A stretch of 64,000 bases of DNA from an uncultured Spirochaetota bacterium (lineage in GTDB: Bacteria > Spirochaetota > Brevinematia > Brevinematales > JAOACQ01), in assembly GCA_963768055.1 (NCBI GenBank), contig CAVYGN010000002.1, forward strand, positions 1-64,000, given 5' to 3'. Numbering within the stretch: the first letter of the stretch is position 1; each line of letters starts with the position of its first letter. Below are positions 7,711-29,961 of this stretch, piece after piece. Position numbers and translations under genes: made by a program. The notes below the pieces were generated by a model. That model had not been told where the DNA came from. It saw only the letters and a list, made by a program, of their open reading frames with translations, and did not search any database.

Positions 7711-7728
7711 ATTTCCTCCTCATTATCT

Positions 7729-9270: not shown

Positions 9271-9396
9271 CCATTCCCCTCCGGTTTTTTCCGGAGAGTA
9301 TGTTTGATTTTTTAGATTCTGAACAGGAAAAGGTGGGTGGGGAATCTCATGGCCCTATTTTGCCTTTTTACTGGGGAATCTGGGTGGCCCCGGACA

Positions 9397-9641: not shown

Positions 9642-9689
9642 AAATACCTTTTTATAAAAAAACATTTTTGCCGTAACTTTCGTACAAGA

Positions 9690-10228: not shown

Positions 10229-10426
10229 AGTCGGTGTAATCTGTGAAATCTGCGGAAATATTTTCTTACCCTGCATAGAGTTATATGATTCGGAGGAGGG
10301 GAGATACGAATGCAGCGTAATTCCATACCCTGTATGGAATAACAAAACTTCGAAAAATTTTTACTAGTACCTGACTGGTGGAACAAAACACCGATTTTTT
10401 TGAAAATTCTGTAAATTGACTTCAAT
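10229..10426. repeat. att-like junction 1: degenerate tRNA-Ser 3' end with hairpin and type-A arm
   Basis: CGGAGGAGGGGAGATACGAA at 10291 (17/20 to 29819-29838); the following ~130 bp resembles 14395-14530 and 22820-22909. Confidence 0.85.
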
Positions 10427-10459
10427 ATAATACCGCCCGGCCTGCACTGACCTCCAGAA

Positions 10460-11391
10460 CTAATTGTTAGCTGCCAGAGGTGAGGGTTGTAATATATACC
10501 TGGTAGCGATTCCATGTAAAATTCCCGACTCATCAAACCACAATTTATCCAAGCAAATCGAACGCTCAAACCCGGTGCCGGGAAAATCCTTTTGATGGTA
10601 AAGTAGCCAGTATTCCCCATTTTTATTCTCAATAACACAGCATGAGCCCGGTCCATAAACATTGCTATTTTGAGAAATAATCGGATTTGCTTCATATTTT
10701 TTAAAAGGTCCTGCCGGGTTTGAGAAGTTGCGCAACCTATTGCATAATTCCTGAGATCGGCGTTATTTCCGGAATAAAGCAAATAGTATATATTATTCCG
10801 TTTGAAAATCCAGGGAGCCTCGTTCCTGGGAGAATCCCAGCCTTGATCGAAAGTCAAAAGCCTCTTAGGGGAACCTTTCAATGTAACCGGATTGCTCATC
10901 GGCTGGACATATATTTCAGTAAAATTAGAACTATAATAAAGATAGAAAGAACCGTCTGTATCCTGAAACATCTGTGCGTCCCCGGAGTTTTTTATTAAAA
11001 TTCCCAGATCTTTATATTCACCGTCCGGCGTACTTGAACTGGCCACGCCTATTTTGTAGTTCACGGTATAATAAAGGTAAAATGTTTTATCGGAGTGGCT
11101 ATAAAAGATATCAGGAGCCCAGAAATCTTTCTCGCTCCCCGGGCCGAAGATCCTGTTTCCCTTAGACCAGTTAACAAGGTCTTTAGATGTATAGATATAA
11201 TAACTCACATTATCGCCGGTTCCTGACATATAGTAAGTCCCATCATATAATAAAATGCAGGGATCGGCCAGGTTGAAAAGGACAGGATTTGTATATCTTC
11301 CGGAAATAGCCGCAGAATTTGCACCTTCCGGCTTTGCTGCGCATGAAGATAACACAACAAACAACAATATTATATACATTAAACTTCTCAT
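10460..11391 (-). pseudogene. GH43-family glycoside hydrolase lipoprotein, frameshifted near 10722
   Basis: ADP, WAPD and EAPW motifs; after GCATS the GH43 sequence continues as NPAGPF..GPG..YH in ORF 10460..10735. Confidence 0.8.
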
Positions 11392-11540
11392 CTGTAATTC
11401 TCCTAAAAAATTCTTAGATCAGTTTATTATATCAAAACCTAATAGGGATTTCAATGTCTAGGCTACCTGTAAATATTAAATATTACCAAGCGAGTAAAAA
11501 GGCAAAAAACCACAATTCGAAAGAAAAGTTCTCACTTCTC

Positions 11541-11660
11541 GCCAGTTGCCAGTAATCGACCTAACTCTATATAATTTACTGGCACATAGCTGGCAAAATT
11601 TATCAATTTACCGAGTATAGCTTTACGCAACTTTGCAATCAACTTTACTGGCACCTGGTG
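11541..11660. repeat. Type-A arm repeat (GCCAGTTGCCAGTA...TACTGGCAC..CTGGCAAAA)
   Basis: Matches 14194-14285, 17891-17948 and 29507-29600; no tRNA-end copy follows it. Confidence 0.8.
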
Positions 11661-11922
11661 GAAGTTTTTCATTGAAAATCGATTTTTTTGGTACAAGAAA
11701 ATGAGGATATCAAATAAATAATGTTACTAACTAATTATTATTAATAACTTATTGCAATTATATACCAACTAAGAAATTGGTTTAAAGTGTAGATCAGTTC
11801 CATAGTAAATTTTCCGGAAATTTACAATCGTCCGGTACAATATTCCTATTGCAAATCTGTAAAATTATTTTTATACTATGTAACTCATGTATCGGTTAAA
11901 TATATTTCAAGGAGATATTTTT

Positions 11923-12399
11923 ATGAAAAAATGCTATTTTTATATTATGTTTGTTATGCTCACAATCCCCTCTTTAACTTTTTCGGAGTCTTTGACGGAC
12001 CGTTTGATTGACGCGGCCTGGTTTGGGGAAACCTCTATAATTCAGGAATTAATCAAGGACGGCGCAGACGTCAATGCCAGGAATAATAAAAATGAGACGG
12101 CTTTGATGGCTGCGGCAGCCGGAGGCAGGCTTGACGCAGTTAAAGCTTTAATCAAGGCGGGGGCAGACGTCAAAGCTTTGCATACAGTTGATACGTATAG
12201 AACCGGACATACTGTTTTAATGGATGCCGCGTACGGCGGAAACGCAGGTGTGATTAACGCGTTAATAGAAGCAAAGGTCAATGTCAACGCCAGGAGAACA
12301 GACGGCTGGACGGTTTTGATGGAAGCGGTGGTCAATGGAAACGCTGACGCGGCTAAAGCTTTGATCGAGGCGGGGGCCGATATCAATAAAGAGGAATGA
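11923..12399 (+). CDS. Secreted ankyrin-repeat protein
   Basis: Signal peptide and 3-4 ankyrin repeats (GADVN, TALM/TVLM); ends abruptly at ADINKEE. Confidence 0.9.
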   Translation: MKKCYFYIMFVMLTIPSLTFSESLTDRLIDAAWFGETSIIQELIKDGADVNARNNKNETALMAAAAGGRLDAVKALIKAGADVKALHTVDTYRTGHTVLMDAAYGGNAGVINALIEAKVNVNARRTDGWTVLMEAVVNGNADAAKALIEAGADINKEE

Positions 12400-12489
12400 C
12401 GGCATGATCTTAAGGAAAACATTTAGAACTGGCAAGGTTCATAAGAAAAAATTAACCATTGTGCAATATATTAATTTTTGGAGGATTTT

Positions 12490-14049
12490 ATGCCCGGGTT
12501 TTTAAAGAATAAAATAATAATCGCGGAAATAGCGGCTATTTCATTTTTTATTATTATTAATATGATTATCTGTCTTTATCCTTACCATTACGGATTTTTC
12601 CGTGATGAACTTCTTTATATATCCCTCTCTGACCGCCTGAGCTGGTCTTATCTCGAAGTGCCTCCTATAGCCCCCCTGATCCTGGCCGGAGTCCGGTTTT
12701 TACTGGGAACCACTTACTTCTCCCTGCATATAATACCGGCGTTACTCAGTTCCATCGTCATCATGGTATCGGCTTTCATGGTAAAAAAAATGGGCGGAGG
12801 CATTTACGCGATGATACTCTGCCTTATCTGCGTAACCCTGGCCCCCGGATTTATTGGCGGAGTTGACCATTACGATTACAATACATTCGACAGGCTTTTC
12901 TGGACGCTTTCCATTTATATGGTTTTGCTTTTGCTTGTCTCTGGGGATAAAAAATACTGGCTGTATTTCGGCCTTTTTGCCGGGCTCGGCCTGATGTCAA
13001 AAATCACCATGCTTTACCTGGGTTTTTCGTTATTAATAGCTTTCCTGGCCCTTAAAGACCGGAAATTTCTTTTCGACAAGCGTTTCCTACTTGGCGGCCT
13101 GATCGCAGCGTTTATTTTTCTTCCCTTCATAATCTGGCAGGTTTATTATCATTTCCCGATCATAGATTACTTTAAAGGTTACGCGGGCAAGCTTAATCAA
13201 TCATCTCCTGTTCAATATATTTCGAACCAGATCGGCTCAATGAACCAGTATGCCTTCCCCGTCTGGCTGCTGGGATTAATTTATTTCCTGTTCGATAAGG
13301 AAGGCAAGAAATTCAGGGTCTTCGGGCTTACCTATTTTTTCCTCTGCGCTCTCTTTATTTTGCAAAACGCGAAGCCATACCTTATCAACCCATTTTATAC
13401 GGTGCTTTTCGCGGGGGGCTCTGTTTTCATAACACGGTTTATTGAGGAGTGTAAAATAAATTGGCTCAAACCTGCGGCCGCTGTCTTTACCGCAGTCATT
13501 ACAATATTTATTTTATGGAATGGAGTCAAAACGATACCATACTGCCGACCTGTCCTGACGCCGGAAAATTTTATTAAAATGACAGGCGGCCAAAAGTTTA
13601 CAGGCGATGAAAAGAGTGCCTCAGGATTGCTTCCCTCGGATTTCGCCGATTGTTTCGGGTGGGAGGAATTGACTGAAAATGTCGCCGGAGTATATCAAAA
13701 ATTGAGCGATTCGGATAAAAAGAAAGTTTGTATCCTGACCGTCAATTATGGAGAAGCCGGCGCCCTTCATTTTTACGGTCCGAAATACGGCCTGCCCGAA
13801 CCGGTCTGTTCCCATAATATCTGGTATATCTGGGGGCCCGGCAGTAATACTGGCGATGTGATGATCATTGTAGGCTATCCCAGTAATTTTTATAAGTCTT
13901 TTACTATCTTATTCGACCGAGTGGAAATTGCCAGGAAAACCGGAACAAAATACGCGATGTGGTATGAAAACGAAAGTGTGATTTTTCTTTGCAGGGGCTT
14001 GCATTGGCCTTTAAAGAAATGCTGGAGATATTTCAAGAATTTCAATTAA
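12490..14049 (+). CDS. GT39/ArnT-like membrane glycosyltransferase
   Basis: FFRDELLY, PPIAP and GLGLMSK motifs with multiple TM helices. Confidence 0.85.
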   Translation: MPGFLKNKIIIAEIAAISFFIIINMIICLYPYHYGFFRDELLYISLSDRLSWSYLEVPPIAPLILAGVRFLLGTTYFSLHIIPALLSSIVIMVSAFMVKKMGGGIYAMILCLICVTLAPGFIGGVDHYDYNTFDRLFWTLSIYMVLLLLVSGDKKYWLYFGLFAGLGLMSKITMLYLGFSLLIAFLALKDRKFLFDKRFLLGGLIAAFIFLPFIIWQVYYHFPIIDYFKGYAGKLNQSSPVQYISNQIGSMNQYAFPVWLLGLIYFLFDKEGKKFRVFGLTYFFLCALFILQNAKPYLINPFYTVLFAGGSVFITRFIEECKINWLKPAAAVFTAVITIFILWNGVKTIPYCRPVLTPENFIKMTGGQKFTGDEKSASGLLPSDFADCFGWEELTENVAGVYQKLSDSDKKKVCILTVNYGEAGALHFYGPKYGLPEPVCSHNIWYIWGPGSNTGDVMIIVGYPSNFYKSFTILFDRVEIARKTGTKYAMWYENESVIFLCRGLHWPLKKCWRYFKNFN

Positions 14050-14193
14050 GGGCCCTGGTGCCTGTCCTGGAGTCAGGCACCACGGTCCATTAGATTATCA
14101 TTTATTAATAACAAAATTAGTTTTTGGAACGCCTTAAATAATTTATTGGGTTAATAGTTAGAAAACAACTGTTTTGTCATTTTATCAAACAAT

Positions 14194-14530
14194 GCCAGTT
14201 GCCATATCAATTTACTGGCAAAAATATGTCAGTGTCAGTAAATCACGTAACTCTATATATTTTACTGGCATCTGGTTGGCAAAATTAATCAAATTAGCTA
14301 TTTTTTAGGATAAGCAGACTAGACTGGCTAGAATTAAAATCAGTATTTATCAGTATTCATCTGCGGATCGTAATTCCTTACCCTGTATATAATTCGGAGG
14401 AGGAGGGATCGGAATATCGCGTAATTCCCTATCCCGTATAGAATAACAAGACTTAGAAATTTTTTTACTGGCACCTGGCTGGCGGAACAAAACACCGATT
14501 TTTTTGAAAATTCGGATAATTGACTTCAAT
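14194..14530. repeat. att-like junction 2 (type-A arm, tRNA 3' copy at 14395, type-A arm)
   Basis: CGGAGGAGGAGGGAT exact 15-mer; ACTGGCA repeats on both sides. Confidence 0.88.
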
Positions 14531-14548
14531 GTTCTGAAGCATTATAAT
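14520..14548 (+). promoter_or_regulatory. Sigma70-type promoter, probably for a leaderless mRNA
   Basis: TTGACT-17 bp-TATAAT with ATG 6 nt downstream and no RBS. Confidence 0.65.
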
Positions 14549-14554
14549 ATTAAT

Positions 14555-14737
14555 ATGAAAGAGATACCTTTATCAAAAACAAACCCCTACCTTCAAAATA
14601 TCGACCAATATGAAAGATTGATCATTAATAATGTTATTACTTCCTCCGCGATTGAAATTGGAACAGTAAGTGCCAATATTATCAAAACATTGAATGAAAA
14701 GAACTCACCTAGGGTTATTTGCCTCCCCGATTATTAA
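14555..14737 (+). CDS. Putative Fic antitoxin (VbhA/FicA-like)
   Basis: 60 aa containing TSSAIEI, resembling the (S/T)xxxE(G/N) inhibitory motif; convergent with and overlapping fic. Confidence 0.5.
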   Translation: MKEIPLSKTNPYLQNIDQYERLIINNVITSSAIEIGTVSANIIKTLNEKNSPRVICLPDY

Positions 14738-15368
14738 CAGTTAAATCAAACACTTCTTTAAAAATTGATTCCATAAGCAAATAGTTTCTATCAAGCCCCA
14801 GATTTACAGCTTTGAAATATTCCTTCTTTTTTTCTTTTTTAATAAAACTAAAGTCCAATGGAGGATAACCTGCCTGAAGTGCCATCAGGGTAGATAATAA
14901 CCTGGCCACCCTTCCGTTCCCTTCCCTGAAAGGATGAATAAGTATCAATTCCACATGAGTTATAGAAATAGCGTTTATTACATTGCCGATATCATTGAAA
15001 TTACATGGAGTAAATTTGAATAGATACTCATTCTCAAATGCATCCATTAAATTTGGGATTTGGGCAGCTGCCGCGAAATTAAAATCCCCTTTGCTTAGAT
15101 TTACCTTCCTGAATTTTCCCGCCCAGGGGTAAATATTACCCAGCCATATTTTATGAATTTTAAAAATGTCACTTGTTTTAAAGCGATGGTTAGCTCCATA
15201 TGTATTAATAATTTCTTCTTCGGCTTGTTTTAAAGCCAGGGCTTCAATTCTATCCATTTCAGTTTTCTTTTTAATACCCAGCAGGTTTTTTAATACGCGA
15301 TTCCTTGAACCAGGCTCAAACTGCGCTTCAACTAATCCGGTTGTATCATATTTATTGTTCTGTTTCAA
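14715..15368 (-). CDS. Fic-domain AMP transferase
   Basis: Canonical HPFREGNGRVAR; VLKNLLGI and YPWAGKFR of class I Fic proteins. Confidence 0.93.
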   Translation of the reverse strand: MKQNNKYDTTGLVEAQFEPGSRNRVLKNLLGIKKKTEMDRIEALALKQAEEEIINTYGANHRFKTSDIFKIHKIWLGNIYPWAGKFRKVNLSKGDFNFAAAAQIPNLMDAFENEYLFKFTPCNFNDIGNVINAISITHVELILIHPFREGNGRVARLLSTLMALQAGYPPLDFSFIKKEKKKEYFKAVNLGLDRNYLLMESIFKEVFDLTVNNRGGK

Positions 15369-17841
15369 TTGAATCTCCTAATGATCCATTTACCTCATAT
15401 CCTATTGCTCTATAGCCTCTCAGCCTTTTGTCAAACATCCTTTTCAATACCGGCTCATTGATATCCGCGTAGTCATAAACTATCAATTCTTTTTTAGAAT
15501 GATGGTTTCTGTGCAGTCTTCCTACATATTGCTCCAGAGTCCCTCTCCAAGATACGGGCATTGCCAGAAAAAGAGTATCAAGCCTGGCATTATCAAAACC
15601 CTCTCCAATATATTTCCCTGTAGAAATAATAATTCTAGATTCATCATCGCTTAAATTCATAAGCATTTTCATTTTTTCTTCCAGCTTCTTTTTACCCATC
15701 CCGGCACGCAGTACGATTATATTTTTAACAATAGGGGTCAACTCTTTTTCGAAATAATCAACATGCTCTTTTCTCTCAGTAAGAAGGAGGGGAATTCTTT
15801 TATTTCCCAGTGCAGCAATTACATCATTAAGGATAATTTGGTTTCTATTCTGATCCTGAATCAGTTCCGAATAAATATCCTGAATGCTTTTATCTTTTTC
15901 ATTACTAAAAAATCCTGAAGAGGAACAAAAATCAGTGTATTTTGGTATAACAGTATGCTTTAAAACCTTTTGATCAGCTATATCCTTGTTTTGTATTTTA
16001 AATCGAATAGGCCCGCATTGCATAAATAAAATAGGCTGATGCCCGTCCTTTCGTATAGGCGTAGCTGTAAGGCCCAGCACATACTTTGCTCTAGCAGTCT
16101 TCATAACCTGTTCAAAGCTGAATGCTGAAATATGATGGCATTCATCAACTATGACAAGACCGTATTCGCTTACGATATCTTTGATTTTACCCTTACGGTT
16201 CAAAGTTTGAAGCATAGCTATATCGATAATTTTTGTCGATTTATCTTTACTGCCTCCGATCTGACCGATAGACTTATCGGGCAGTTCCAGAAACATTAAC
16301 AACCTTTGTTTCCATTGCTCCATTAATTGTTTTCGATGTACCAATATGAGGGTATTTACTTTTTTCTCTGCAATCAGGGCGGCTCCAACCACTGTTTTAC
16401 CGAATGCTGTTCCCGCGGATAAGATCCCTATTTCATAATCCAGTATTGAATTTAAAGCCTTTTCCTGGATTTGTCGGAGTTTCCCTTTGAAACTTGCTTC
16501 AATCGGTAAACCAGAGCATCTTTTATCCTCAACATTCAATTCTATATGGTTAGTTTTTAATAATTCTTTCAAGTCATCCAGGCAACCCCTGGGGATACCG
16601 ATATGGTTTGGATATTCTTCAGCTGAACTGATTATCCTTGGTTTACCGAACGTATTAAGACGCATTGCCTGGGTCCTGTAAAATTCAGGGTTTTGAAACG
16701 CTGCTAATTTACGGATCCTGTTAATCAGGAGGGAAGGAAGATTTCTTATATCAATAAAAATCATATTGGACAATACAATATCCAATTTGACCGGGAGATT
16801 ATCGCATTTCAAAGGTTCATTTAAAGCCGGAGAAGGGATTATATTCCACGGTTCCAGTTCTTCATCTTCAGTATGAGTTTGAATGCCAAAAGAAAATGCT
16901 TGCCGATAATTGTCTGAAACTATTTTGTTGACATTTGATTGTGACATTTTAACTATTCGGGAAAGGAAATCCCATTGATCCAGGAAAGGTTCTGCAGCTT
17001 CATTTATGAAAATACTGTTCCCTTCATTTCTTGGTTTTTGCTGAAGTGGCAGAGCTATCAGATTTCCAAAACCACCTTTTGGTATAGTGTCCTGGTATGG
17101 AAAGAACCGGTCATAAGATGATAAACTGATCTGGTAACGGTTATCCATTGTTCTTGTAAGAATAATAAAACCTAATTTTCTAGCTTGAAATGCAGGAATT
17201 TTTGTTTCAAAAAAAATCCAGATATGCCCTCCCTTGCCGGAACGGGAGCGCTCCAGATAAGCAGGGATATTCATATCCTTACAGGTATTCAAATATGCAA
17301 GAGCATCATCCATCCAATTAAGGTGGGCTTCTTTGTCGTCAAAATCGCAGGCAAGAAAGAAGCAATTTTCATCCCGAATCATCGGATAAACACCGATGGT
17401 TATTTTTCCAGACAAATGATCGGATATTGTTTGGTCAGCGATAGCAGCATATTTTTTATTTTCACATTCTCCGCATTTTATCATTGGTTTTTTGCAGAAT
17501 TTTCTATCCCATTCATTAGTACAAACCGGAGAATATCCCGATTTTCCCTTTTGTGACTCCCAACGGGCAGGATAAACATCTTCCCGTCCTTTAAAAAGAC
17601 TTCTGAATAACTTAATCTTTATTGTATTTGGAGAATTATGATTTACAACTTCTTTTAAGCCCTTTAAATTTAAATTCGTATTTTTTTCATCATAAGAATC
17701 ATTCGATACATGTAAATTATCAAGTGCTTGTTTTCCATTGACTGGTAACAAATTCTTAAGTCGATTGTTTTCTATATATAATCTTTTATTTTCTTGTTTC
17801 AAGGCTAGAATCTGATTCTTTAGATCTTCTAATTCCATCAT
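15352..17841 (-). CDS. AEP (TOTE-type) primase-like domain fused to an SF2 (ResIII-like) helicase
   Basis: N-terminal FKGREDVY, CxN/CxxC, DFD, ERSRSGKGGHIW and GNLIALP; C-terminal TAFGKT, DECHH, GLTAT and QYVGR. Confidence 0.85.
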   Translation of the reverse strand: MMELEDLKNQILALKQENKRLYIENNRLKNLLPVNGKQALDNLHVSNDSYDEKNTNLNLKGLKEVVNHNSPNTIKIKLFRSLFKGREDVYPARWESQKGKSGYSPVCTNEWDRKFCKKPMIKCGECENKKYAAIADQTISDHLSGKITIGVYPMIRDENCFFLACDFDDKEAHLNWMDDALAYLNTCKDMNIPAYLERSRSGKGGHIWIFFETKIPAFQARKLGFIILTRTMDNRYQISLSSYDRFFPYQDTIPKGGFGNLIALPLQQKPRNEGNSIFINEAAEPFLDQWDFLSRIVKMSQSNVNKIVSDNYRQAFSFGIQTHTEDEELEPWNIIPSPALNEPLKCDNLPVKLDIVLSNMIFIDIRNLPSLLINRIRKLAAFQNPEFYRTQAMRLNTFGKPRIISSAEEYPNHIGIPRGCLDDLKELLKTNHIELNVEDKRCSGLPIEASFKGKLRQIQEKALNSILDYEIGILSAGTAFGKTVVGAALIAEKKVNTLILVHRKQLMEQWKQRLLMFLELPDKSIGQIGGSKDKSTKIIDIAMLQTLNRKGKIKDIVSEYGLVIVDECHHISAFSFEQVMKTARAKYVLGLTATPIRKDGHQPILFMQCGPIRFKIQNKDIADQKVLKHTVIPKYTDFCSSSGFFSNEKDKSIQDIYSELIQDQNRNQIILNDVIAALGNKRIPLLLTERKEHVDYFEKELTPIVKNIIVLRAGMGKKKLEEKMKMLMNLSDDESRIIISTGKYIGEGFDNARLDTLFLAMPVSWRGTLEQYVGRLHRNHHSKKELIVYDYADINEPVLKRMFDKRLRGYRAIGYEVNGSLGDSIETEQ

Positions 17842-17890
17842 TAATAATCCCAATATAATATTGAATAAAATCAATCAAATCAATAAGATT

Positions 17891-18290
17891 GCCAGTTGCC
17901 AGTAAATCACCTATTTCATTATAATCTACTGGCACCTGACTGGCAAAAAATCGTTTTATTGGTTAGATTGGCTGGATTGGCTGAAATTTTGAAAAAGCGG
18001 CTTTTTCACCAAAATGAGCCAAACCAACCAAAAGAAATTTTTACAAAAATATTGATATGTTATTAACAGGAATAGAGATATGGAGATTAAGGAATTTCAG
18101 GGAAAAATCCATCTGCGAAATCTGCGGATCGTAAATCCTTATCCTGTATATAATTCGGAGGAGGAGGGATTCAGAAAACCCTAACCCTTCTGCTAATTCT
18201 TTATTCCACAATCAGATAGAAATTCATTATTTTACGATTTAACCAAAAATCCGTAATCAAACCGTAATCAAATCATAATCGCATAATTAT
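17891..18290. repeat. att-like junction 3 (type-A arm, tRNA 3' copy at 18156, type-B CGTAATCA arm)
   Basis: 17-bp exact match CGGAGGAGGAGGGATTC; CGTAATCA at 18252 and 18263, CATAATC at 18274. Confidence 0.88.
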
Positions 18291-18378
18291 CTTATTACAG
18301 GTATTGAAAATATACAACCATTATCATGATTTTAAGTATTTGAAATGATTATTTTGTAAAAATATTTTAAAAACCCCC

Positions 18379-18409
18379 TTGACTTGGAGTCCACTCCAGG
18401 TTGTATAAT
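18379..18409 (+). promoter_or_regulatory. MerR-type promoter/operator
   Basis: TTGACT-19 bp-TATAAT with the dyad TGGAGT-CC-ACTCCA in the spacer. Confidence 0.9.
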
Positions 18410-18444
18410 GTTTATATTCAAAAAATAGAAGTCGGAGGAAAACC

Positions 18445-20705
<2,261 letters not shown>

Positions 20706-20727
20706 CAAAGTAACAGGAGGTAAATCC

Positions 20728-21561
20728 ATGGCTATCAATGAAACAGCGAATAAAAACCATGAGGCGCTTTTTCCGAATCACAAATCAACATTAAAAGCGA
20801 CCGATCCGGAACTGATAGAGGTATTCGATAATTTTGCTTTTGATGAAGTGCTGGATTATGGCAACATGGATGCAAGAGCAAGGTTAATGATTATTCTGGG
20901 ATCAATGATCGCAAGCCAGGCATTAGGCGAATATAAAGTAATGCTTGGCGGTGCGCTGAATATGGGTGTAACGCCGGTTGAGGTTAAAGAAATAGTATAT
21001 CAAGCTGTGCCTTATGCCGGAATGGCAAAAGTATTTGATTTTATCCAGGCCACAAATGAAATACTGGAAAGCAGGGGGTTAAAGCTTCCGCTGGAAGGAC
21101 AATCGACAACAACACCTGAAACTCGGCTTGAAAAAGGATTGGAAGTGCAAAAATCCATTTTTGGGGAAATGATTGATAAGATGTACAAGGAATCGCCGGC
21201 TGATCAGATTCATATCCAGAAATATTTGTCAGCGAATTGTTTTGGTGATTATTATACAAGAAAGGGACTGGATATTAAAACAAGAGAACTTTTGACGTTT
21301 TCAATGATCTTATCCCTGGGAGGATGCGAGCCTCAGTTAAAAGGGCATATACAAGGCAATATGAATGTCGGAAATGATAAAGGAGTATTGCTTACTGCAA
21401 TTACCCAATTACTGCCATTTGTGGGATATCCGAGAGCACTCAACGCAATAAGATGTTTAAATGAAGTTTTTGTGCATCTTTCTATCGAGGTAAATCCCGA
21501 AAAGGGTCAGGCTACATGGCTTGACCCGGTATCTGACCAGGATTACGATAAATTGAAATAA
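20728..21561 (+). CDS. Carboxymuconolactone decarboxylase (double CMD) family protein with a cupin-like tail
   Basis: Two CMD repeats (FAFDEV; CFGDYYTRKGLD..RELLT; GYPRALNA). Confidence 0.88.
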   Translation: MAINETANKNHEALFPNHKSTLKATDPELIEVFDNFAFDEVLDYGNMDARARLMIILGSMIASQALGEYKVMLGGALNMGVTPVEVKEIVYQAVPYAGMAKVFDFIQATNEILESRGLKLPLEGQSTTTPETRLEKGLEVQKSIFGEMIDKMYKESPADQIHIQKYLSANCFGDYYTRKGLDIKTRELLTFSMILSLGGCEPQLKGHIQGNMNVGNDKGVLLTAITQLLPFVGYPRALNAIRCLNEVFVHLSIEVNPEKGQATWLDPVSDQDYDKLK

Positions 21562-21573
21562 GGAAGTATTTCT

Positions 21574-22167
21574 ATGGCTATAAACGACACGGAAAGAAAA
21601 AACGTGATAATTCTAGGTGCTGGCGGTCAAATTGCAAGTCATGCGATTGAAATGTTGGTAAAATTGGATAATATTAATCTGACCCTTTTTTTGCGAAATA
21701 AAAGCAGATTAAAGAAAAACAATATTTCCAAATGCCGTATCATCGAAGGCGACGTTCTTGATATCAATCAGCTCAAGGAGGCTATTAACGGACAGGATAT
21801 CGTATATGCAAATCTTTCAGGCGATTTGGAGGCGATGGCAAAAAACATCGTGAAAGCTATGGAAGATAAAGGAGTCAAAAAACTCATCTTCATAAGTTCT
21901 ATAGGTATTTATGATGTTCCTTTGCGACCAGTTTTAAAGCCTTACCGGAATGCTACTGATGTAATAGAATCATCTGATCTTGATTACACCATCCTGAGGC
22001 CGACCTGGTTTACAGGTGCTGATGAAGTGGATTATGAAATTACAGAAAAAGGCGAGCCGGAAAAAGGTTCAGAGATCTCTCAAAAAAGCCTGGCGACATT
22101 TATAGTTAAAATTATCGAATCTCCTGAAAATTATAAACGTAAAAACCTTGGCATAAGCAAACCATAG
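21574..22167 (+). CDS. NAD(P)-binding short-chain oxidoreductase
   Basis: ILGAGGQIA and LDYTILRPTW motifs. Confidence 0.88.
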   Translation: MAINDTERKNVIILGAGGQIASHAIEMLVKLDNINLTLFLRNKSRLKKNNISKCRIIEGDVLDINQLKEAINGQDIVYANLSGDLEAMAKNIVKAMEDKGVKKLIFISSIGIYDVPLRPVLKPYRNATDVIESSDLDYTILRPTWFTGADEVDYEITEKGEPEKGSEISQKSLATFIVKIIESPENYKRKNLGISKP

Positions 22168-22190
22168 ACTACTATATACGGAGGATACTT

Positions 22191-22727
22191 ATGAGCAGGA
22201 AAATTTTAGTGCTTTCAGCGAGTCCGAGAAAAGGAGGAAACTCAGATTTGCTATGTGATCAATTTATGATGGGAACAAAAGATGGCGGACATGAAGCTGA
22301 AAAGATATTTTTAAAGGATAAAAATATAAATTACTGCACAGGTTGTGGCAACTGTTTCAACGGCAAGAGTTGTTCCCAGAAAGATGATATGGGCAGTATA
22401 CTGGATAAAATGATTTCAGCCGATGCAATTGTGATGGCAACTCCTGTATATTTTTACACTATGAACGCTCAGATGAAAACTTTAATAGACAGAACCTGTT
22501 CCCGTTATACTGAAATTTCGAATAAGGATTTTTATTTTATTGTAACTGCCGCTGACAACAGCAAGCATGCTATGGAAAGGGCACTTGAAGGATTCAGAGC
22601 ATTTACCTCCTGCCTGAGCGGGGCACAGGAAAAGGGAATCGTTTATGGAACCGGCGCATGGAACATTGGGGAGATAAAAGGAAAGCTTGCGATGAAAGAA
22701 GCATATGAAATGGGGAAGCAGGTTTAA
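22191..22727 (+). CDS. Iron-sulfur flavoprotein / flavodoxin family
   Basis: SPRKGGNS, CTGCGNC...C and TPVYF motifs. Confidence 0.9.
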   Translation: MSRKILVLSASPRKGGNSDLLCDQFMMGTKDGGHEAEKIFLKDKNINYCTGCGNCFNGKSCSQKDDMGSILDKMISADAIVMATPVYFYTMNAQMKTLIDRTCSRYTEISNKDFYFIVTAADNSKHAMERALEGFRAFTSCLSGAQEKGIVYGTGAWNIGEIKGKLAMKEAYEMGKQV

Positions 22728-22742
22728 TTTAGATATAAGAAT

Positions 22743-22909
22743 CGAAATCAAATCGTAATCAGTTGATACTTGAAATACTTAATTGTTTTATATTAAAGGA
22801 GTTAGATTAGAATATAATCCGGAGGAGGAGGGATACGAATGCAGCGTTATTCCATACCCTGTATGGAATAACAAAACTTCGAAAAATTTTTACTGGCACC
22901 TGACTGGCA
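22743..22909. repeat. att-like junction 4 (type-B arm, tRNA 3' copy at 22820, hairpin, type-A arm)
   Basis: CGAAATCA and CGTAATCA at 22743 and 22754; 19/20 match to the tRNA end; TTATTCCATAC-CCT-GTATGGAATAA; TACTGGCACCTGACTGGCA at 22891. Confidence 0.88.
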
Positions 22910-23243
22910 TACCCTTCAGGCACTAAAGGAAGTTTTTTAGTAAAAAACAAGCTCTTCTTGCTTTGAAAAATGTAGATCTATGCCCAGGAATTTCGGGCTT
23001 GATATTAGGCAATTGTCGTCTCTGTCTGATTTTCTTGATATGCTTTTCAAACAGTAACTCGTTTACAGATTCTAAACGTGGCGGTTATAGCTGAAATAAT
23101 AAGTCAAAAAAAGACACAATTGTTCTGGCATAAAAAGAGATAGTAAAATAAAAAACTTAAGGAGACTCTTTCACAATATGGGCGGGCAGTTGGTATAATG
23201 AAATTATTGAGTTTAAGTACAGTTTTATTTATAATTTCGATAT

Positions 23244-24653
23244 ATGGGAAAAAATGAAAATGTTTCATATTTTTATAATGGGTTCATCAGCTACAGGCAT
23301 AAAGAGCGGGATCGGAAATGGGCCAAAACGCTTTTTGAAGCGCTGGAAAATTTTCGTTCTCCTAAGGCGCTGATAAAAACAGGAACCTCTCCAAGGATTA
23401 GCAGGATTTTTCGCGATGAAAACGAACTGCCGACATCACCCAACCTTAGCGATGATATCAATCGCGCGCTGGAGGCATCCAGGACGCTTATCGTGGTCTG
23501 TTCGAAAGACACTCCATTTTCCCTCTGGGTCTGCAGGGAAATTGAGGCATTTATAGAAATGGGCAGAGGAAATCGGATTTTTGCCATTGTGATAGATGAT
23601 GATCCTGACATGTCGCTGCCTGAGCCTTTGAAAATATTTTTCGGTAAAGACGGGGAAAAAGAGGAATATCACGGCCATATGATACGGTTGAAGACCGGAA
23701 AACTTAATTACCCGGCTTTTATTCCCGTAATAGCCGAAGCTTTAGGAGTAAAATCTGATCTATTGTCGGAAGCGATAATAAAAACTGCCGTTAGGAAGCG
23801 CAAAATCACTGCGGCCATCATGACATCAGCAATTGCCGTTATCGCAGTCATCTTTTATCTCATATATGATTACATAGGATTAAAAACTTTGTATTACCGA
23901 TCTTTTGCAGATCGATATTCCCTTCCTGCCGGCATCGGCATGATCGACTTTAAAAAAAATAATCAAGCAGGTTCGATGTACCGTTTTGAGATCAGGATGG
24001 GGAAATTGTTCAGGGTAGTTATGGTAGATAGCCAAGGGGAAAAAAAAGATGACGACTGGGGAATTTCCGAACGAGATATATCCTACACTTCCGGTAAAAT
24101 ACAGATTACACTTAAAAATTCAAGAGGGGTTGTCCTGCAGATCAGGGACTATACCGGAGACAGGTTACAGGTAGAGTTGACATCCGGGAACGGATATGAG
24201 ATATTCCGCGGCTGGGAAAGCCCTTCTTCCCATTTGTGTTCCTTTACGCCCAGAAATAAACTGATTCCCTCCTATATAAATATAGAATATGATGAAAATG
24301 GTTTTATCCGCAAGGAGATGTACTTCCATGATCAGTGGAATACTCCGGCTTTTGACGAATGTTCGAACTCGGGAAAATTGTTTGAATATAACCGGAACGG
24401 CCTGGTAACAGAGTGGCGGGGGCTCGACAGCAGCGGAGATTTGATGCAGACAGGGCCTAAAGCCGGCGGAGAAAAGCTCTCTTATGGCCCTGACGGCAGG
24501 GAACTTTCCAGGGCTTTTATCAACGGCAGGGGAGAGATTGTGAACGGGCCTGGAAAGCCATACGCGCAAGTTCGATTTATTTATGAAGTAAACGGTTCAA
24601 TATTGACAAATTACTTTGATTCTAATAATGATCCCCTGCCCGGAAATCAGTAA
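23244..24653 (+). CDS. TIR domain, single TM, extracytoplasmic repeat-derived domain
   Basis: FISYRH, IFRDENEL, LIVVCS and WVCREI; RKRK followed by a hydrophobic helix; YD-like repeats at the C-terminus. Confidence 0.88.
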   Translation: MGKNENVSYFYNGFISYRHKERDRKWAKTLFEALENFRSPKALIKTGTSPRISRIFRDENELPTSPNLSDDINRALEASRTLIVVCSKDTPFSLWVCREIEAFIEMGRGNRIFAIVIDDDPDMSLPEPLKIFFGKDGEKEEYHGHMIRLKTGKLNYPAFIPVIAEALGVKSDLLSEAIIKTAVRKRKITAAIMTSAIAVIAVIFYLIYDYIGLKTLYYRSFADRYSLPAGIGMIDFKKNNQAGSMYRFEIRMGKLFRVVMVDSQGEKKDDDWGISERDISYTSGKIQITLKNSRGVVLQIRDYTGDRLQVELTSGNGYEIFRGWESPSSHLCSFTPRNKLIPSYINIEYDENGFIRKEMYFHDQWNTPAFDECSNSGKLFEYNRNGLVTEWRGLDSSGDLMQTGPKAGGEKLSYGPDGRELSRAFINGRGEIVNGPGKPYAQVRFIYEVNGSILTNYFDSNNDPLPGNQ

Positions 24654-24664
24654 AGGAGTGACTT

Positions 24665-27493
24665 ATGCCCGATATAACAACATTTCAATATGACGTGTTT
24701 ATAACCTGCAGAAATATACCTCAGGACAGGGCCTGGGCGGCATGGCTCCTCAGATCCATCCTGAAATACCGGGTATCAAAAGCACTCCGGAAAAGAGGGA
24801 TACCGTCACGGGTGAGTAAAATTTACTTGGACGAAGATGAACTGGCAATCACCCCGAATCTTTCTGAAAAAGCGATTAAAGCCTTGGAAACTTCAGGCTG
24901 CCTCATAGTTATATGTTCAACTCAAACGAAACAATCGCTATGGATAGAAATGGAAATAGATCTTTTTCGTAAACTCGGAAGGGGAAACCGGATACTTGTC
25001 CTCTTGGTTGAAGGTGAACCAGGCGAATCTTTTCCGAAAGGGTTGCTTGAAATAACTGAAACAGAGGAACTTCAGGACGGAAGCCTGAGAAAAACGGTAA
25101 AAAAGGTTGAACCCCTGGCCGCCGATGTGCGCCCGAGGAAGGATGAAACGCGGGGAAAATTGAAAATATTGGCAATTCTACGAATATTGGCCGGCATACT
25201 GGGATGCACATTTGACGATCTTTTTCAGAGGGAAAAACGAAGGCGGAAACGCCGGACCATAACGGCTATATCGATATCAGCGTCTTTATTTATCGCTATA
25301 TGCGCAATAACATTCAGCGTATGGCTTTCCAGCTTGCCGCAGGTCGAATATTACAACAGTTTTGTTTACAGATGGGGCAAACCCGCAGGTATCGGGGAAG
25401 TGGATAAGGCATCTGCGGCCAGAAGGCTGCAAACATACCGCTTTGAGACGAAAAACGGGAGACTGCTGAGAGTTGTGCTTCAAAACGGTAGCGGAATGCC
25501 GATGCCGGATAACTCCGGGGTCAGCGAATGGAGGATGGATTACACAACCGGCTATACGAACGGGACATTTAAACAAATCGAGTGTTTTAACATTAATGGG
25601 ATGGTTGTTATGAAGCGGGATTATTCGGACGATTATAAAACTATCGAGCTTAAAGACGCTTTTGACAGGCCTTATGCCAAACCGTCAGAAGGGATTGATT
25701 TACTCCTCCTGACCGAGCTTATCATACAAGACAATAATAAAACGAAAAAACCGATGATCAACCGGATAAAAACCGAATTGGACACTGACGGATTTGTCGT
25801 AAACGAAATTTACCAGAGGGACGTGTTCGGTACGCCTGAGGCGGACGAAAACGGCAGCTACGGTAAAATCTTCACTCTGGACAGACAGGGGCTGGTGCTT
25901 GAATACCACAGCATCGGCAGAGGCGGCAAATCAAGCCCGATGAAAGAAGGCGTAAGCGTGGAAAAAAGGCAGTACAACGATTTGGGAAATGAGGTTGATA
26001 AAGTTTTTACAGGCCCCGAAGGCCGGCCGTTTATGCCGATCTCGCTCGGTTATGCTGAAAGGACCATGAAGTATGATAATGCGGGAAATGAGATCGAATC
26101 CGCCTACTTTGATGAAAAAGGGAAGGCGATTATTAACAGGAGCGGATATTCGAAGGCTGCAATGAGCTATGATAATCGTGGAAACCAGATCGGGATCGCC
26201 TTCTTTGATAAAGATGGAAACCCTGCCATGTCTAAAGATTTTGGCTATTCAATGATTATTTCAAAGTGGGATGAAAGAGGAAACCAGATTGAGATTGACT
26301 TTTTCGGAACTGACAGGAAACCTTGCGTTTGCAATGAAGGATACTCTAAAGTGAAATTCAGGTATGACGGAAGAGGGAACCAGATTGGAAATTCTTATCT
26401 GGACACCGACGGAAAACCTGTACTCTCAAAGGGCGGGTATGCAAAATTAATTTTGAAGTATGACAACCGGGGCAACCTGATCGAAACTATCTGCCTGGGC
26501 GTCGACGGAAAACCTGTCAACTCGAAGGACGGGTACGCGATTATTAAATCAAAGTTTGATAAACAGGGCAATAAGATTGAGGAATCGCTATTCGGAGCCG
26601 AAGGGAAACCCGTCCTTAACAAGTCGGGATATTTTAAAACGTTGGTAAAATATGACGAAAGGGGAAACCAGATCGAGAAGGTCTGCATTGGGACAAACGG
26701 GAAACCCGCACTGAATATTGATGGCTACTCTAAGGTGACTGAGAAGTACGATGAACGCGGGAATCAGACCGAATGGGCATACTTCGGCACTGACGGGAAA
26801 CCTATCCTTGAAAATACTTACGGCATCGCAAGGAATATTTCGGCGTATGACGATAGGGGCAACATGACCGGATGGGCCTGTTATGATACTGGAGGTAAAC
26901 CCATGCTTGATAAAGACGGCATAGCGATGATAGCCATGAAATATGACGAACTGGGAAATGTTATAGACATTGAATATTTTGACACCGACGGAAAACCTGT
27001 CAAGTGTAACGCTGGTTACGCGAAGTGGACGGAGAAGTATGACGCAAGAGGAAACCGTATCGAGTTTGACTGCTTCGGGACGGATGGGAAACCTGTACTT
27101 GACAGGGACGGCGCAGCAAAAATCACGATGAGGTATAACAAACGTAATTTAATGATCGAAAACGCCTTTTACGGCACGGACGGAAAACTTATCATTATAA
27201 AAAACGGGTATGCCAGATCAGAAGTTAAGTATGACGAACGCGGGAATATGATAGAGAATGACTACTTCGGCGTGGACGGGAAACCCATCCTATGCAGTGA
27301 CGGGATCGCAAAATGGACTGAGAGTTTCGACGAAAGATGGAATGCGGTTGAAATAGCCTATTTCGGGATCGATGGGAAGCCTGTTGCCTGTAAATTAGGA
27401 TTTGCGAAATGGGAAGGCAAGTATGATGAACGGGGAAAGGTCATTGATAATGAATATTTTGATAAAAACGGGAATATAATATCACTAAATTAA
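24665..27493 (+). CDS. TIR domain, single TM, about 16 tandem 32-aa YD-like repeats
   Basis: YDVFI, IYLDEDEL and WIEMEI; KRRRKRR followed by TM; repeat consensus KYDERGNxIExxxFGxDGKPxxxxxGYAK. Confidence 0.9.
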   Translation: MPDITTFQYDVFITCRNIPQDRAWAAWLLRSILKYRVSKALRKRGIPSRVSKIYLDEDELAITPNLSEKAIKALETSGCLIVICSTQTKQSLWIEMEIDLFRKLGRGNRILVLLVEGEPGESFPKGLLEITETEELQDGSLRKTVKKVEPLAADVRPRKDETRGKLKILAILRILAGILGCTFDDLFQREKRRRKRRTITAISISASLFIAICAITFSVWLSSLPQVEYYNSFVYRWGKPAGIGEVDKASAARRLQTYRFETKNGRLLRVVLQNGSGMPMPDNSGVSEWRMDYTTGYTNGTFKQIECFNINGMVVMKRDYSDDYKTIELKDAFDRPYAKPSEGIDLLLLTELIIQDNNKTKKPMINRIKTELDTDGFVVNEIYQRDVFGTPEADENGSYGKIFTLDRQGLVLEYHSIGRGGKSSPMKEGVSVEKRQYNDLGNEVDKVFTGPEGRPFMPISLGYAERTMKYDNAGNEIESAYFDEKGKAIINRSGYSKAAMSYDNRGNQIGIAFFDKDGNPAMSKDFGYSMIISKWDERGNQIEIDFFGTDRKPCVCNEGYSKVKFRYDGRGNQIGNSYLDTDGKPVLSKGGYAKLILKYDNRGNLIETICLGVDGKPVNSKDGYAIIKSKFDKQGNKIEESLFGAEGKPVLNKSGYFKTLVKYDERGNQIEKVCIGTNGKPALNIDGYSKVTEKYDERGNQTEWAYFGTDGKPILENTYGIARNISAYDDRGNMTGWACYDTGGKPMLDKDGIAMIAMKYDELGNVIDIEYFDTDGKPVKCNAGYAKWTEKYDARGNRIEFDCFGTDGKPVLDRDGAAKITMRYNKRNLMIENAFYGTDGKLIIIKNGYARSEVKYDERGNMIENDYFGVDGKPILCSDGIAKWTESFDERWNAVEIAYFGIDGKPVACKLGFAKWEGKYDERGKVIDNEYFDKNGNIISLN
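25973..27490 (+). repeat. Coding tandem repeat, about 96-bp (32-aa) unit
   Basis: About 16 units starting YNDLGN, YDNAGN, YDNRGN, WDERGN...; diverged at the DNA level. Confidence 0.9.
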
Positions 27494-27508
27494 TATTTTT
27501 TATTGAAA

Positions 27509-29308
27509 TCAATTCAACTTTTCATCAGCGGGAATAATATTGTATATTTCCTGTTTTCCGAATCCCTTTGCGAGATCTATAATCCCAACATATTCATATT
27601 TGTATTTTTCCGGATAGTCCAGCATAAGTAAAGTAGTAAACTGGTCTGTAGCATAGATGCTGCCTGGTACGGTTACAGGTTCAATCCTCGCAGCCCTGTT
27701 TACATGACTCCCGTAAGCGTTCATTTTACCGGTAATCGGGTCTCTTGCTACAAATATCGGCCCGGTGTGCAAGGCAATCCGTATGTTAATATTTTCAGGC
27801 AGGTTGAATTCAGACCACCTGGTTTCCCTAAAAATATTCCTTAAGATGACTGCGTATTCGGCGGCCTCCAAAGGGCTGGAAAATACTGAGAATATTGCGT
27901 CTCCCCAGGTGTTGACAATATAAGGTCTGATCCTGAAATTATTTATGCGGACGGCAATCTTATTTAAAAGCACATGCATGAAATAGGGCATTTGTTCTTC
28001 GTTCAATTTTGAAAAACCCTTAATATCAGAGAACAAGATGCTTTTTATAAATCTCTTTAAACCGAAAGGCGGCGCCGATTTATCATTGCCCGTGATTGAT
28101 ATAGGCTTATTTTGATAAGTTTTGTCTCTAGAAATGTACTTTTTCGGGTCAATTATAATGATGTTATTACGACCTTTGTATTTTTTAAAAAATTCTTCAG
28201 TCCCTCCTGTTTTAATATTTTTTTTACTTGAATGAAATACCCCCATCATATAATATTCAGCCTGTAGGCTTTTAGAACGCACTTGTGCCTGGCCGAGGAT
28301 TATCCTGTTCAGGAAAGAGAATAATTCGTCGCTGCCCAGGTATCTCTCCTCGGTAATGTAGTTGACGCGGGTTTTCTCTAATATTTTATTAAAACGGTCA
28401 ACCCAGTTTTGGCCTGCAAACCCCACGCTTTTTTCGATAAAATCATCCTTTTGAAAAGGAAGATAAACATTTACTTCGGCCCCTCGTTCCAGCATGGCCT
28501 CCACGAAGAGAATATCCGACCCGCATGCAAGAGATGAATAACCGATGCCAGCGTCAATTTCCTGCAGGCGGTGCTTGATATCTTTTTTTATTTCCACGGA
28601 TATCGTTTCAGGAAACCTTGGAACAACTCGATCGGGATGATCAATCATGTGGCCGGAGAACACAACTATCGGTTTGGGTTTCAATATATTCAAGATATCT
28701 GCCGGAATGCTGATAATGTTTTTTAAAAATAATATTTGATGGTAGGAACTGTTGACGTTGCCGGGAGATTCTGACGAAGTTTTTACGGCTTCTTCGTAGT
28801 AATGAAACGCATTTACTGGGTCGTTTATGATCAGGTAAGCCTCGCCGAGGGTGGCTAAGGACCAGTAATCTTTACAGTCATTTTTCATGATGATATCGAT
28901 AACTGATTGGGCAATACCGACGGCTTCTGCCTTATCCCCAACAGCAAAAGACATAGTCGCGGCGTTGATACCGTTATAATAGTCCTTTTCCTTTCTGAAA
29001 CAATCCCGGTAAATCTCCCTGGATTTTTGCCCGTATTCAGGATTATTGGTTTTTTTGAAAAGGTCTTTATAAATTCTGCCCAGGATTCCTGACGTTTCGG
29101 GGTCTTTATTAACCTTATATATAGATTCCATGTGATCTTTGGCTTTGATCGGTTCACCGATCTTCGCAAGTACCAGGCCTTTCAGCTGTAATAGCCTTAT
29201 ATTGTCCGGATTATTAACAAGTTTTGAATTTAAAAGATTATAAGCTTCAATAAAGCGGCCTTTTTTTATTGTGATCTCAACTTCTGTTATTTCCTGTTCT
29301 ATTTCCAT
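27509..29308 (-). CDS. TPR (TPR-S/MAP3K TRAF-binding-like), SLOG-like and class III nucleotide cyclase protein
   Basis: GILGRIYKD, YYNGINAAT and DYWSLATLGEA; FSGHMID..RFP and SLACGSDILF; ILFSDIKGFS, TWGDA, RIALHTGP and VNRAARIEP. Confidence 0.85.
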   Translation of the reverse strand: MEIEQEITEVEITIKKGRFIEAYNLLNSKLVNNPDNIRLLQLKGLVLAKIGEPIKAKDHMESIYKVNKDPETSGILGRIYKDLFKKTNNPEYGQKSREIYRDCFRKEKDYYNGINAATMSFAVGDKAEAVGIAQSVIDIIMKNDCKDYWSLATLGEAYLIINDPVNAFHYYEEAVKTSSESPGNVNSSYHQILFLKNIISIPADILNILKPKPIVVFSGHMIDHPDRVVPRFPETISVEIKKDIKHRLQEIDAGIGYSSLACGSDILFVEAMLERGAEVNVYLPFQKDDFIEKSVGFAGQNWVDRFNKILEKTRVNYITEERYLGSDELFSFLNRIILGQAQVRSKSLQAEYYMMGVFHSSKKNIKTGGTEEFFKKYKGRNNIIIIDPKKYISRDKTYQNKPISITGNDKSAPPFGLKRFIKSILFSDIKGFSKLNEEQMPYFMHVLLNKIAVRINNFRIRPYIVNTWGDAIFSVFSSPLEAAEYAVILRNIFRETRWSEFNLPENINIRIALHTGPIFVARDPITGKMNAYGSHVNRAARIEPVTVPGSIYATDQFTTLLMLDYPEKYKYEYVGIIDLAKGFGKQEIYNIIPADEKLN

Positions 29309-29506
29309 CGCATCCCCGTAACTAATTAATAACAAAAAGCGAATGAAGCAAACTAAAGAATATCAATCGATTATATCCCTGAGCAAGTTACCGCTTTGAT
29401 CATAAATTCCATGTAAAACCACCATATTTTCCTCTATTAATCTAATAATGAATCGAAAAAAACACAAGCCTACTATTAGTCAATATCATAATTTTATTAC
29501 TATTAT

Positions 29507-29818
29507 GCCAGTGCCATTAATCGACCTAACTTTATATTGAGCATGCGGTTCAAGACCTATGGTGCCCTCCGGGCACCTTCGGCACCTGACTGGCAAAATT
29601 TATCGATTTACCGATTTTTGGTTAGGTTGGTCATATTTTCCGGAATCATCAATGGATTAAATTAACAAATCAATATTTTCTGTTTAAGAATTTAAATAAG
29701 GCTTATATTATTAATATGTATGGAGATATGATAATATTGGATTCTCAGAATTTAGTCTATCCGTGTAATCTATGAAATCTGTGGTTTCTATTTCGTTGTG
29801 GGGTAAGGAATTATGATT
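29507..29818. repeat. Type-A cassette end adjoining the intact tRNA
   Basis: GCCAGTGCCA...GGCACCTGACTGGCAAAATT and GTGTAATCTATGAAATCTG, matching 10234-10252. Confidence 0.8.
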
Positions 29819-29903
29819 CGGAGGAGGAGGGATTCGAACCCCCGATACCTTACGGTATAACAGTTTTCAAGACTGCCTCCTTCGACCGCTCGGACACTCC
29901 TCC
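29819..29903 (-). tRNA. tRNA-Ser(TGA)
   Basis: GGAGGAG/CTCCTCC acceptor stem, anticodon loop CTTGAAA, long variable arm, GGTTCGAATC T-loop, G discriminator; CCA not encoded. Confidence 0.96.
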
Positions 29904-29961
29904 GTTTTTATAAAGAAGTTATTTTATAACAGGCAGCGGCATTTGTCAAAATACCCGCCGT

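Follow-up and report, generated by a model that had tools for sequence, protein, structure and literature searches.

An array of integrase-less units behind a tRNA-Ser gene in a Spirochaetota genome, probably a stack of cis-mobilizable islands

The window analysed here comprises the first 64,000 nucleotides of contig C2 (C2:1-64000) of a 3.69-Mb Spirochaetota genome, G000, which is assembled in two contigs (C1 and C2) at 94.75% completeness; its relatives carry the handles G001, G002, G003 etc., with contigs written as, e.g., G001:C25. Behind the tRNA-Ser(TGA) gene of this window stands an array of five units in four blocks, which are delimited by copies of the tRNA 3' end and contain no integrase gene. 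We consider it probable, at about 60%, that this array is a stack of cis-mobilizable, integrase-less islands, similar to the cis-mobilizable elements (CIMEs) of streptococci, that has grown by site-specific accretion at the 3' end of the tRNA gene. The recombination sites, a cognate enzyme, a deletion intermediate and the sharing of units across species can be read from the sequences, and from these we infer every recombination step.

The attachment (att) core corresponds to the last 15 nt of tRNA-Ser(TGA) (29819-29833), i.e., the end of the T loop, the T stem, the acceptor stem and the discriminator. This 15-mer, CGGAGGAGGAGGGAT, has been found exactly at 29819, 22820, 18156 and 14395 and with two mismatches at 10291, which gives five matches in the window compared to 0.13 expected, a number reached by none of the 100 shuffles used as a control. 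An Rfam search has returned tRNA only. The core-to-core spacings of blocks I to IV are 6999, 4664, 3761 and 4104 bp. A preliminary description of this DNA had proposed four such blocks, and the delimitation by the cores has been confirmed with one amendment: the 4.1-kb block contains a core-less fusion of a right arm to a left arm at about 11540-11660 and therefore holds two fused units (IVa and IVb), so that the array counts five units instead of four. The same description had regarded the blocks as minimal units with att ends and without any integrase, which agrees with our results. Arms and core copies surround the units, with one joint lacking the core. No recombinase has been detected by Pfam among all 14 large open reading frames (ORFs) inside the blocks, and tblastn with two integrase types has found no remnant at E<1 in positions 1-30000 of the window. 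Among the same 14 ORFs, relaxase and transfer genes are likewise absent, which fits the definition of a CIME, and no replication, packaging or conjugation functions have been seen. The features of the array, ordered outward from the tRNA, are as follows.

29818..29904, minus strand: tRNA-Ser(TGA), the target gene
29503..29595, minus strand: left (tRNA-proximal) arm of block I, family A; a small inserted hairpin of a dispersed repeat type disrupts the second repeat and the -10 box
27509..29335, minus strand: block I cargo, TPR-S sensor with class III nucleotide cyclase, 608 aa (Pfam TPR-S, MAP3K_TRAF_bd, Guanylate_cyc)
23244..27493, plus strand: block I cargo, two TIR-domain proteins of 469 and 942 aa, the second with 32-aa repeats (Pfam)
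22811..22909, minus strand: right end of block I, family A; arm pair 22891-22909, hairpin 22849-22869, core 22820-22834
22743..22810, minus strand: left end of block II, family B; GATTACG repeats with 11-bp period
18445..22727, plus strand: block II cargo, MerR, two aldo-keto reductases, CMD-family protein, NAD(P)H-binding protein, flavodoxin (Pfam)
18147..18280, minus strand: right end of block II, family B; three GATTA(C/T)G repeats 18252-18280, core 18156-18170
17890..17946, minus strand: left arm of block III, family A; direct TGCCAGT pair, inverted ACTGGCA pair, embedded TTGCCA-N17-TATAAT promoter
15352..17874, minus strand: block III cargo, TOTE-type archaeo-eukaryotic primase with superfamily 2 helicase, 840 aa (Pfam AEP-TOTE, 9.6e-99)
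14715-15368, minus strand: block III cargo, Fic protein (Pfam; PADLOC PDC-S04)
14555-14737, plus strand: block III, 60-aa ORF convergent with Fic, no family match (Pfam)
14386..14484, minus strand: right end of block III, family A; arm pair 14466-14484, core 14395-14409
14190..14281, minus strand: left arm of unit IVa, family A
11887..14049, plus strand: unit IVa cargo, ankyrin-repeat protein and PMT_2 glycosyltransferase (Pfam)
11540..11660, minus strand: junction without a core, at which a truncated A right arm (about 11608-11660) joins an A left arm (11540-11595)
10460..11391, minus strand: unit IVb cargo, GH43 glycoside hydrolase lipoprotein (Pfam), frameshifted by a 1-nt difference to the G001 copy
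10283..10380, minus strand: right end of unit IVb, family A; arm pair 10362-10380, hairpin, core copy 10291-10305
9690-10181, minus strand: C-terminal fragment of an S24/CI-like repressor, beyond the last core at 10291
6864-9356, minus strand: IS21 copy beyond the last core, with at least nine near-identical copies elsewhere in the genome

Two families of arms occur in the array, A with TGCCAGT pairs and B with GATTACG repeats. Read in the direction of the tRNA, the A left end consists of a direct pair TGCCAGT-N4-TGCCAGTA, a TATAAT-like box and an inverted ACTGGCA pair, and the A right end carries the same direct TGCCAGT pair ∼60 bp before the core. In the window there are five matches to the arm pair TGCCAGT-N4-TGCCAGTA, compared to 0.07 expected, and the right end of block III forms an attP-like joint with the left arm that follows. 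Family B is confined to block II, where GATTACG repeats with an 11-bp period occupy both ends; this layout of three repeats with 11-bp spacing has also been seen in another integrase group that is common in the order. The ACTGGCA/TGCCAGT arms had been described beforehand as conserved at the block ends in general, which applies to blocks I, III and IV and not to the GATTACG-type block II (18156-22820), and the TATTCCATAC/GTATGGAATA hairpin assigned to the same ends is perfect at only two of four. ATCTG(C/T)GAAATCTG (ATCTGYGAAATCTG), proposed as a further block-end motif, has been discarded as a repeat dispersed genome-wide with 11 exact copies and 51 with one mismatch. In autonomous elements, the direct pair of the A left arm overlaps a TTGCCA-N17-TATAAT promoter upstream of the integrase gene (int), which suggests an autoregulation of int. 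Within the window this promoter is intact before the TOTE gene of block III (11/12 sigma-70 match) and is not intact in the other three A left arms. Hairpins resembling repetitive extragenic palindromes have been observed as insertions in the second repeat of A arms in several genomes (window 29540-29580; C1:15340 and C1:20965; L077, L078 and L033), and a related hairpin has 20 matches genome-wide.

A tyrosine integrase adjoining the same arms, as foreseen in the preliminary description, has been found in four relatives. The A-arm pattern, scanned over 41 genomes with the reversed pattern as control, has matched nine of them, with a clear excess over the control in G000 (9 vs 1) and G001 (6 vs 0). 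In G001 (C14), G004 (C5) and G008, left arm A stands directly before a full-length tyrosine integrase of 353 aa at tRNA-Ser(GGA). In G002 (C7), left arm A and the first 187 codons of the A integrase (cut by the contig end, 148/187 identical) follow tRNA-Ser(TGA), the same tRNA that carries the array of the window. An alignment search of 35 genomes of the order has retrieved the A integrase at E<=1e-20 from five of them, i.e., these four and, distantly, G017, and not from G000. The protein contains a Phage_integrase domain, and the catalytic R-K-HxxR-H-Y set is visible in the alignment. Its structural model, of modest confidence with an overall predicted template modelling score (pTM) of 0.45, has three N-terminal strands and a helix (residues 3-47, per-residue confidence pLDDT about 80), and its alignment with full-length lambda Int spans about 360 columns. 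We take the protein to be the lambda-type tyrosine integrase cognate to the A arms, and for family A the att ends of the array have been found to be related to integrase-bearing elements at the same target in G001, G002, G004 and G008. The A element of G008 is a prophage (tape measure, endolysin). That of G001 encodes a repressor, a 112-aa ORF, a replication initiator and ParA, with no relaxase in its assembled part; the 112-aa ORF, for which Pfam has given no match, shares 45% identity with an ORF at the opposite end of the G008 prophage and is a plausible candidate for the excisionase (Xis).

Neither the A integrase nor the putative Xis has been found in the G000 assembly. Its 14 tyrosine recombinases, several of them directly behind other tRNAs, have been considered as resident helpers and rejected, the best likeness to the A integrase being 30% over 158 aa. 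Concerning family B, the exact arm pattern occurs in none of 20 relatives, DNA searches in five relatives have given one differently armed end and chance matches, and no GATTACG repeats lie upstream of those G000 recombinases whose upstream arms were displayed. A metagenome scan with the left-arm pattern has yielded a single match, identical to the G001 element sequence, and a viral scan with the integrase query has yielded two loci, the G008 prophage and one distant integrase; the exact arm pair has had no match in the viral scan.

The transition from an integrase-bearing element to an integrase-less unit is captured in G004: 8 kb behind its tRNA-Ser(TGA), a left arm A is followed by two int remnants (residues 1-91 and 254-340, 45% identical), then by cargo and by a right arm A whose core is worn. 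This remnant represents one snapshot of the origin of such units by internal deletion, and its intact A relatives are a prophage and a rep/ParA element, not a demonstrated integrative and conjugative element (ICE) or integrative and mobilizable element (IME). Integrase fragments are present in G006 as well, and G003 carries an internally deleted TOTE-Fic unit that ends in right arm A and core, 3.3 kb behind tRNA-Ser(TGA). A right ends with a core copy have been detected in G001, G002, G003, G004 and G006. As expected from the preliminary description, content and order at tRNA-Ser(TGA) vary between species, and the sequence behind this tRNA differs in every readable relative (G002, G003, G004, G006 and G008).

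Several units of the window are shared between species. The TOTE-Fic unit of block III has a counterpart in G002, with matches that run from one core to the other over two contigs (81% and 85%); a different unit stands before it there, and TOTE with an A right end has also been found in G006 behind tRNA-Ser(GGA). Between the G000 and G002 copies, 76 of 208 four-fold sites differ (37% synonymous divergence), compared to only 5/56 positions in the left and 4/44 in the right arm (9%; binomial p 3e-6 and 4e-5), which argues that the arms have stayed conserved in this unit without int in both species. Over 1245 bp, the GH43 unit shares 95.4% identity with G001:C25, compared to 70% for the genes that flank the tRNA, and a transfer of this unit between species may be deduced from this difference. 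PMT_2 of unit IVa shares 81% of its amino acids with cargo behind tRNA-Ser(GGA) in G006. The redox operon of block II, bounded by B ends here, has homologues with A right ends in G001:C25 and G002:C83, and a second TOTE-Fic copy of G000 lies with other ends inside a tRNA-Ser(GCT) island; therefore, cargo passes from one end family to the other. An age gradient toward the distal end, as had been proposed, is not recovered: the most distal right end shares 93% identity with the most proximal one, the 95% identity to G001 is seen in the distal GH43 unit, and the damaged left arm is the proximal one. Among public data, seven runs from two studies have matched part of the stretch, and four have been examined, with contigs at depth 2-5 and many holes. 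Two of them, X2 and X3 (one study, one contig each), contain a joint that links the left end and core of block I to a B-type arm (sides of 23 and 66 nt, likeness set to 90), a weak hint at a B element in front of block I in other strains.

Based on these observations, the array may have formed as follows. Temperate phages and small int-repressor-xis-rep-ParA elements integrate at tRNA-Ser(GGA) and tRNA-Ser(TGA), as seen in the relatives. Such A elements would lose int and other core genes by deletion, for which the G004 remnant provides one snapshot, and would retain the core and both arms around the cargo. A new helper could then integrate at the tRNA in front of the resident units and leave again by recombination of its own left end with the right end of a unit further downstream, taking this unit to a new host. 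After integration there, it would later excise alone at the internal joint, and the cargo unit would remain behind the tRNA with its ends intact. Repeated cycles of this kind would result in an array without integrase. A second, unrelated integrase type with B arms, whose enzyme has not been found in the searches given above, would use the same core. As long as the helper is present, its Int and Xis may also act in trans on single units, excising or reshuffling them, and units could be fused and ends swapped by recombination between repeats of the 19-bp arm pair. The A units in the G000 assembly would currently be stranded.

Several points weigh against this scenario. The G002 halves of the TOTE-Fic unit lie on separate contigs with ∼1 kb unassembled between them, and the conservation of the arms could come from gene conversion among arms or, for the left arm, from promoter function. 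The identity of the GH43 unit to G001 falls at the arms, and therefore ends and cargo do not always travel together. Circle joints, core-to-core skips and excision products have not been seen in the four shallow public runs, which proves nothing, and an empty tRNA-Ser(TGA) site with the same flanks has not been found; in G001, which is syntenic upstream, 40 bp follow the tRNA before the contig stops. Because the contigs break off too early, no right end of an intact autonomous A element has been seen, and the link between right arm and integrase is drawn from the G004 remnant and the shared repeat. No contig with a full integrase helper and downstream A units in tandem has been found, nor an integrase with B arms in the pattern scan of 20 relatives, the DNA searches in five and the displayed recombinase arms of G000. 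At 94.75% completeness, and with these islands at or near an end of both contigs, the genome may conceal a resident helper in a gap.

The conserved arms also suit a model in which the units are free non-autonomous cassettes, built from arms, core and cargo with a reused int promoter, that would be excised as circles, singly re-inserted in trans by a co-resident A or B integrase and spread by transduction, vesicles or uptake. The result would be like that of an integron, with no integrase dedicated to it. In line with this model, an integrase-less unit common to two species has arms that are clearly better conserved than its synonymous sites, the TOTE-Fic unit stands at different array positions, and many small A-bounded units occur in five relatives; TOTE starts <70 bp from the left arm, at the place of int in the helpers and under an 11/12 sigma-70 match. 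However, the blocks provide no replication, packaging or conjugation function, and a circle would therefore have no evident route between cells. No circles have been seen in the shallow public contigs, the A integrase and the putative Xis have not been found in the G000 assembly, and an intact promoter points straight into cargo in only one of the four A left arms of the window. Cis-mobilization by a visiting helper accounts for the data no less well than pure trans mobilization, and we rate the latter as rather unlikely. Slightly easier to entertain, still as a tentative idea, is that A-bounded units across the family constitute a pool of non-autonomous att-only cassettes, a tyrosine-integrase counterpart of miniature inverted-repeat transposable elements, with arms maintained by selection long after the integrase was lost, a taken-over int promoter and exchange by passing integrases. 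If so, there would be an integron-like cassette turnover at tRNA genes without a resident recombinase, and units would be excised, reordered and exchanged between species and arm families by the integrases of phages and satellites.

The array could conversely be inert, with each block a fixed remnant of a separate full element that decayed in place, none ever remobilized by an integrase, and with ends that persist through inertia and homologous recombination among them. Broken arms, hairpin insertions, the core-less fusion and the frameshifted GH43 gene in the window, together with the deleted TOTE-Fic remnant of G003 and the integrase fragments of G004 and G006, would be expected from such decay. 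We regard it as improbable, given that none of the five units retains a trace of an integrase, that the integrase-less TOTE-Fic unit occurs in two species with conserved arms, and that a 95% identical GH43 unit is found across species with 70% identical flanks. Still far less credible is a true integron or a CALIN-like system (clusters of attC sites lacking an integron-integrase), although the array had been described as working like an integron. Integron cassette arrays present an ordered row of unrelated adaptive or defence cargo at one locus, variable between genomes. The array resembles them only outwardly, in that a repeated site separates successive stretches of cargo with or without promoters, and differs in its multi-gene units of 1.3-7 kb and lambda-type att ends; IntI, attI and attC have not been found. 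The IntI profile (TIGR02249) has given 16 weak matches in the genome, the best with 87.8 bits against a cut-off of 265 bits, which none of 14 control genomes passed either, hence there is no positive control. Pairs of attC-like RYYYAAC/GTTRRRY motifs are missing from five of six junction windows, and the sole pair, 190 bp off the core and inside a hairpin insertion, is a chance pair. Furthermore, the repeat is a tRNA fragment with double-stranded arm-type sites.

Accretion by cis-mobilization would place the array among systems of which the general kind has already been published. CIMEs have lost integration and transfer genes, retain attL and attR, are common at sizes of 1.2-13 kb, and arise by decay and accretion in three described steps, as set out in parts of PMC5704250 and PMC7563491. 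In the streptococcal cases of these excerpts they carry cargo, are stacked at the 3' end of a gene with chimeric joints and are moved when an integrase-bearing element integrates adjacently, all of which resembles the array. In contrast to these streptococcal CIMEs, the helpers here are a prophage and a satellite- or plasmid-like element rather than ICEs or IMEs, a single core occurs with two unrelated arm families in alternation, and units are common to several species. The survey of S. salivarius, as far as these excerpts describe it, reports at most three elements, by its method only next to an ICE or IME, while five integrase-less units stand here without a helper. In Dehalococcoides, 15 ssrA islands without integration module have been proposed to be cis-mobilizable; as excerpted from PMC3146451, they are likewise tandem islands behind a tDNA, bounded by repeats of about 20 bp of the tDNA end, and use a serine integrase module and a tmRNA target instead of the tyrosine integrase, arm-type repeats and tRNA-Ser found here. 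Prochlorococcus islands fed by tycheposons (excerpts of bioRxiv 10.1101/2020.12.28.424599) also grow by successive integration at a tRNA, which pushes older material outward and leaves partial tRNA copies and remnants. Tycheposons encode their own integrase, whereas the bounded units here do not and yet have recognizable arms on both sides.

The array is thus a known way of island growth and not a new kind of integron. It differs from the published cases in the phage-like helpers, the five helper-free units, the two arm families and the evidence that arms are conserved after integrase loss, and CIME-type accretion would be extended to phage-like helpers in Spirochaetota. A published description of an exact match has not been found in the open literature searched, with subscription journals and bioRxiv supplements outside this search. 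Arrays such as the tRNA-Ser stack go uncounted because Islander-type finders require an integrase for each island (as stated in the excerpted part of PMC4383910), and with them goes defence-type cargo such as TIR proteins, cyclase, TOTE and Fic. The array bears on the question whether integrase-less islands are dead remnants or still-mobile passengers, and a direct test could draw on a full-length cognate integrase and a putative excisionase, on five pairs of ends and a decay intermediate, and on the evidence for arm conservation after loss of the integrase.

In the cargo of block I (23244-29335), the gene of the TPR-S/class III cyclase converges on those of two TIR-domain membrane proteins with long 32-aa repeat regions. 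PADLOC has given only weak matches, 20 relatives contain no DNA match, and the genes look like an undescribed nucleotide-signalling module of defence or conflict. The 60-aa ORF convergent with Fic in block III has its own 11/12 promoter and is conserved in G002 and G003; it contains an SxxIE-like motif, which we take to be reminiscent of FicA/VbhA antitoxins. The GH43 frame of unit IVb shifts after about residue 225 relative to the G001 copy, and the 1-nt difference may be a real lesion or an assembly error. Beyond the array, the repressor fragment and the IS21 copy (6864..10181) are probably a further decayed element.

Elsewhere in G000, strong matches to A-end profiles, built partly from the array's own sites, are restricted to this array, C1:5.8-21 kb and C2:1168-1174 kb, the last of which lie behind an autonomous element at tRNA-Ser(GGA). 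Further A and B ends and a tRNA-Ser-type core (15254) occur near the contig start at C1:5777-21087, in an orientation compatible with a continuation of the array across the assembly gap, which is not proven; overlap of the contig ends and guanine-cytosine skew have left the joining of C1 and C2 undecided. Cores of the tRNA-Ser(TGA) type with B and a third arm family are found at C2:1870488, C2:1874009 and C1:1793770 within a tRNA-Ala(CGC) island, and C1:10065-15266 and C1:1793762-1798962 share 98% identity; cassette stacks have apparently been relocated into this other island. Near-identical integrases of 510 aa follow tRNA-Ser(GGA) (C2:1129776) and tRNA-Ser(CGA) (C1:637131), and all four tRNA-Ser genes of the genome are integration hotspots.

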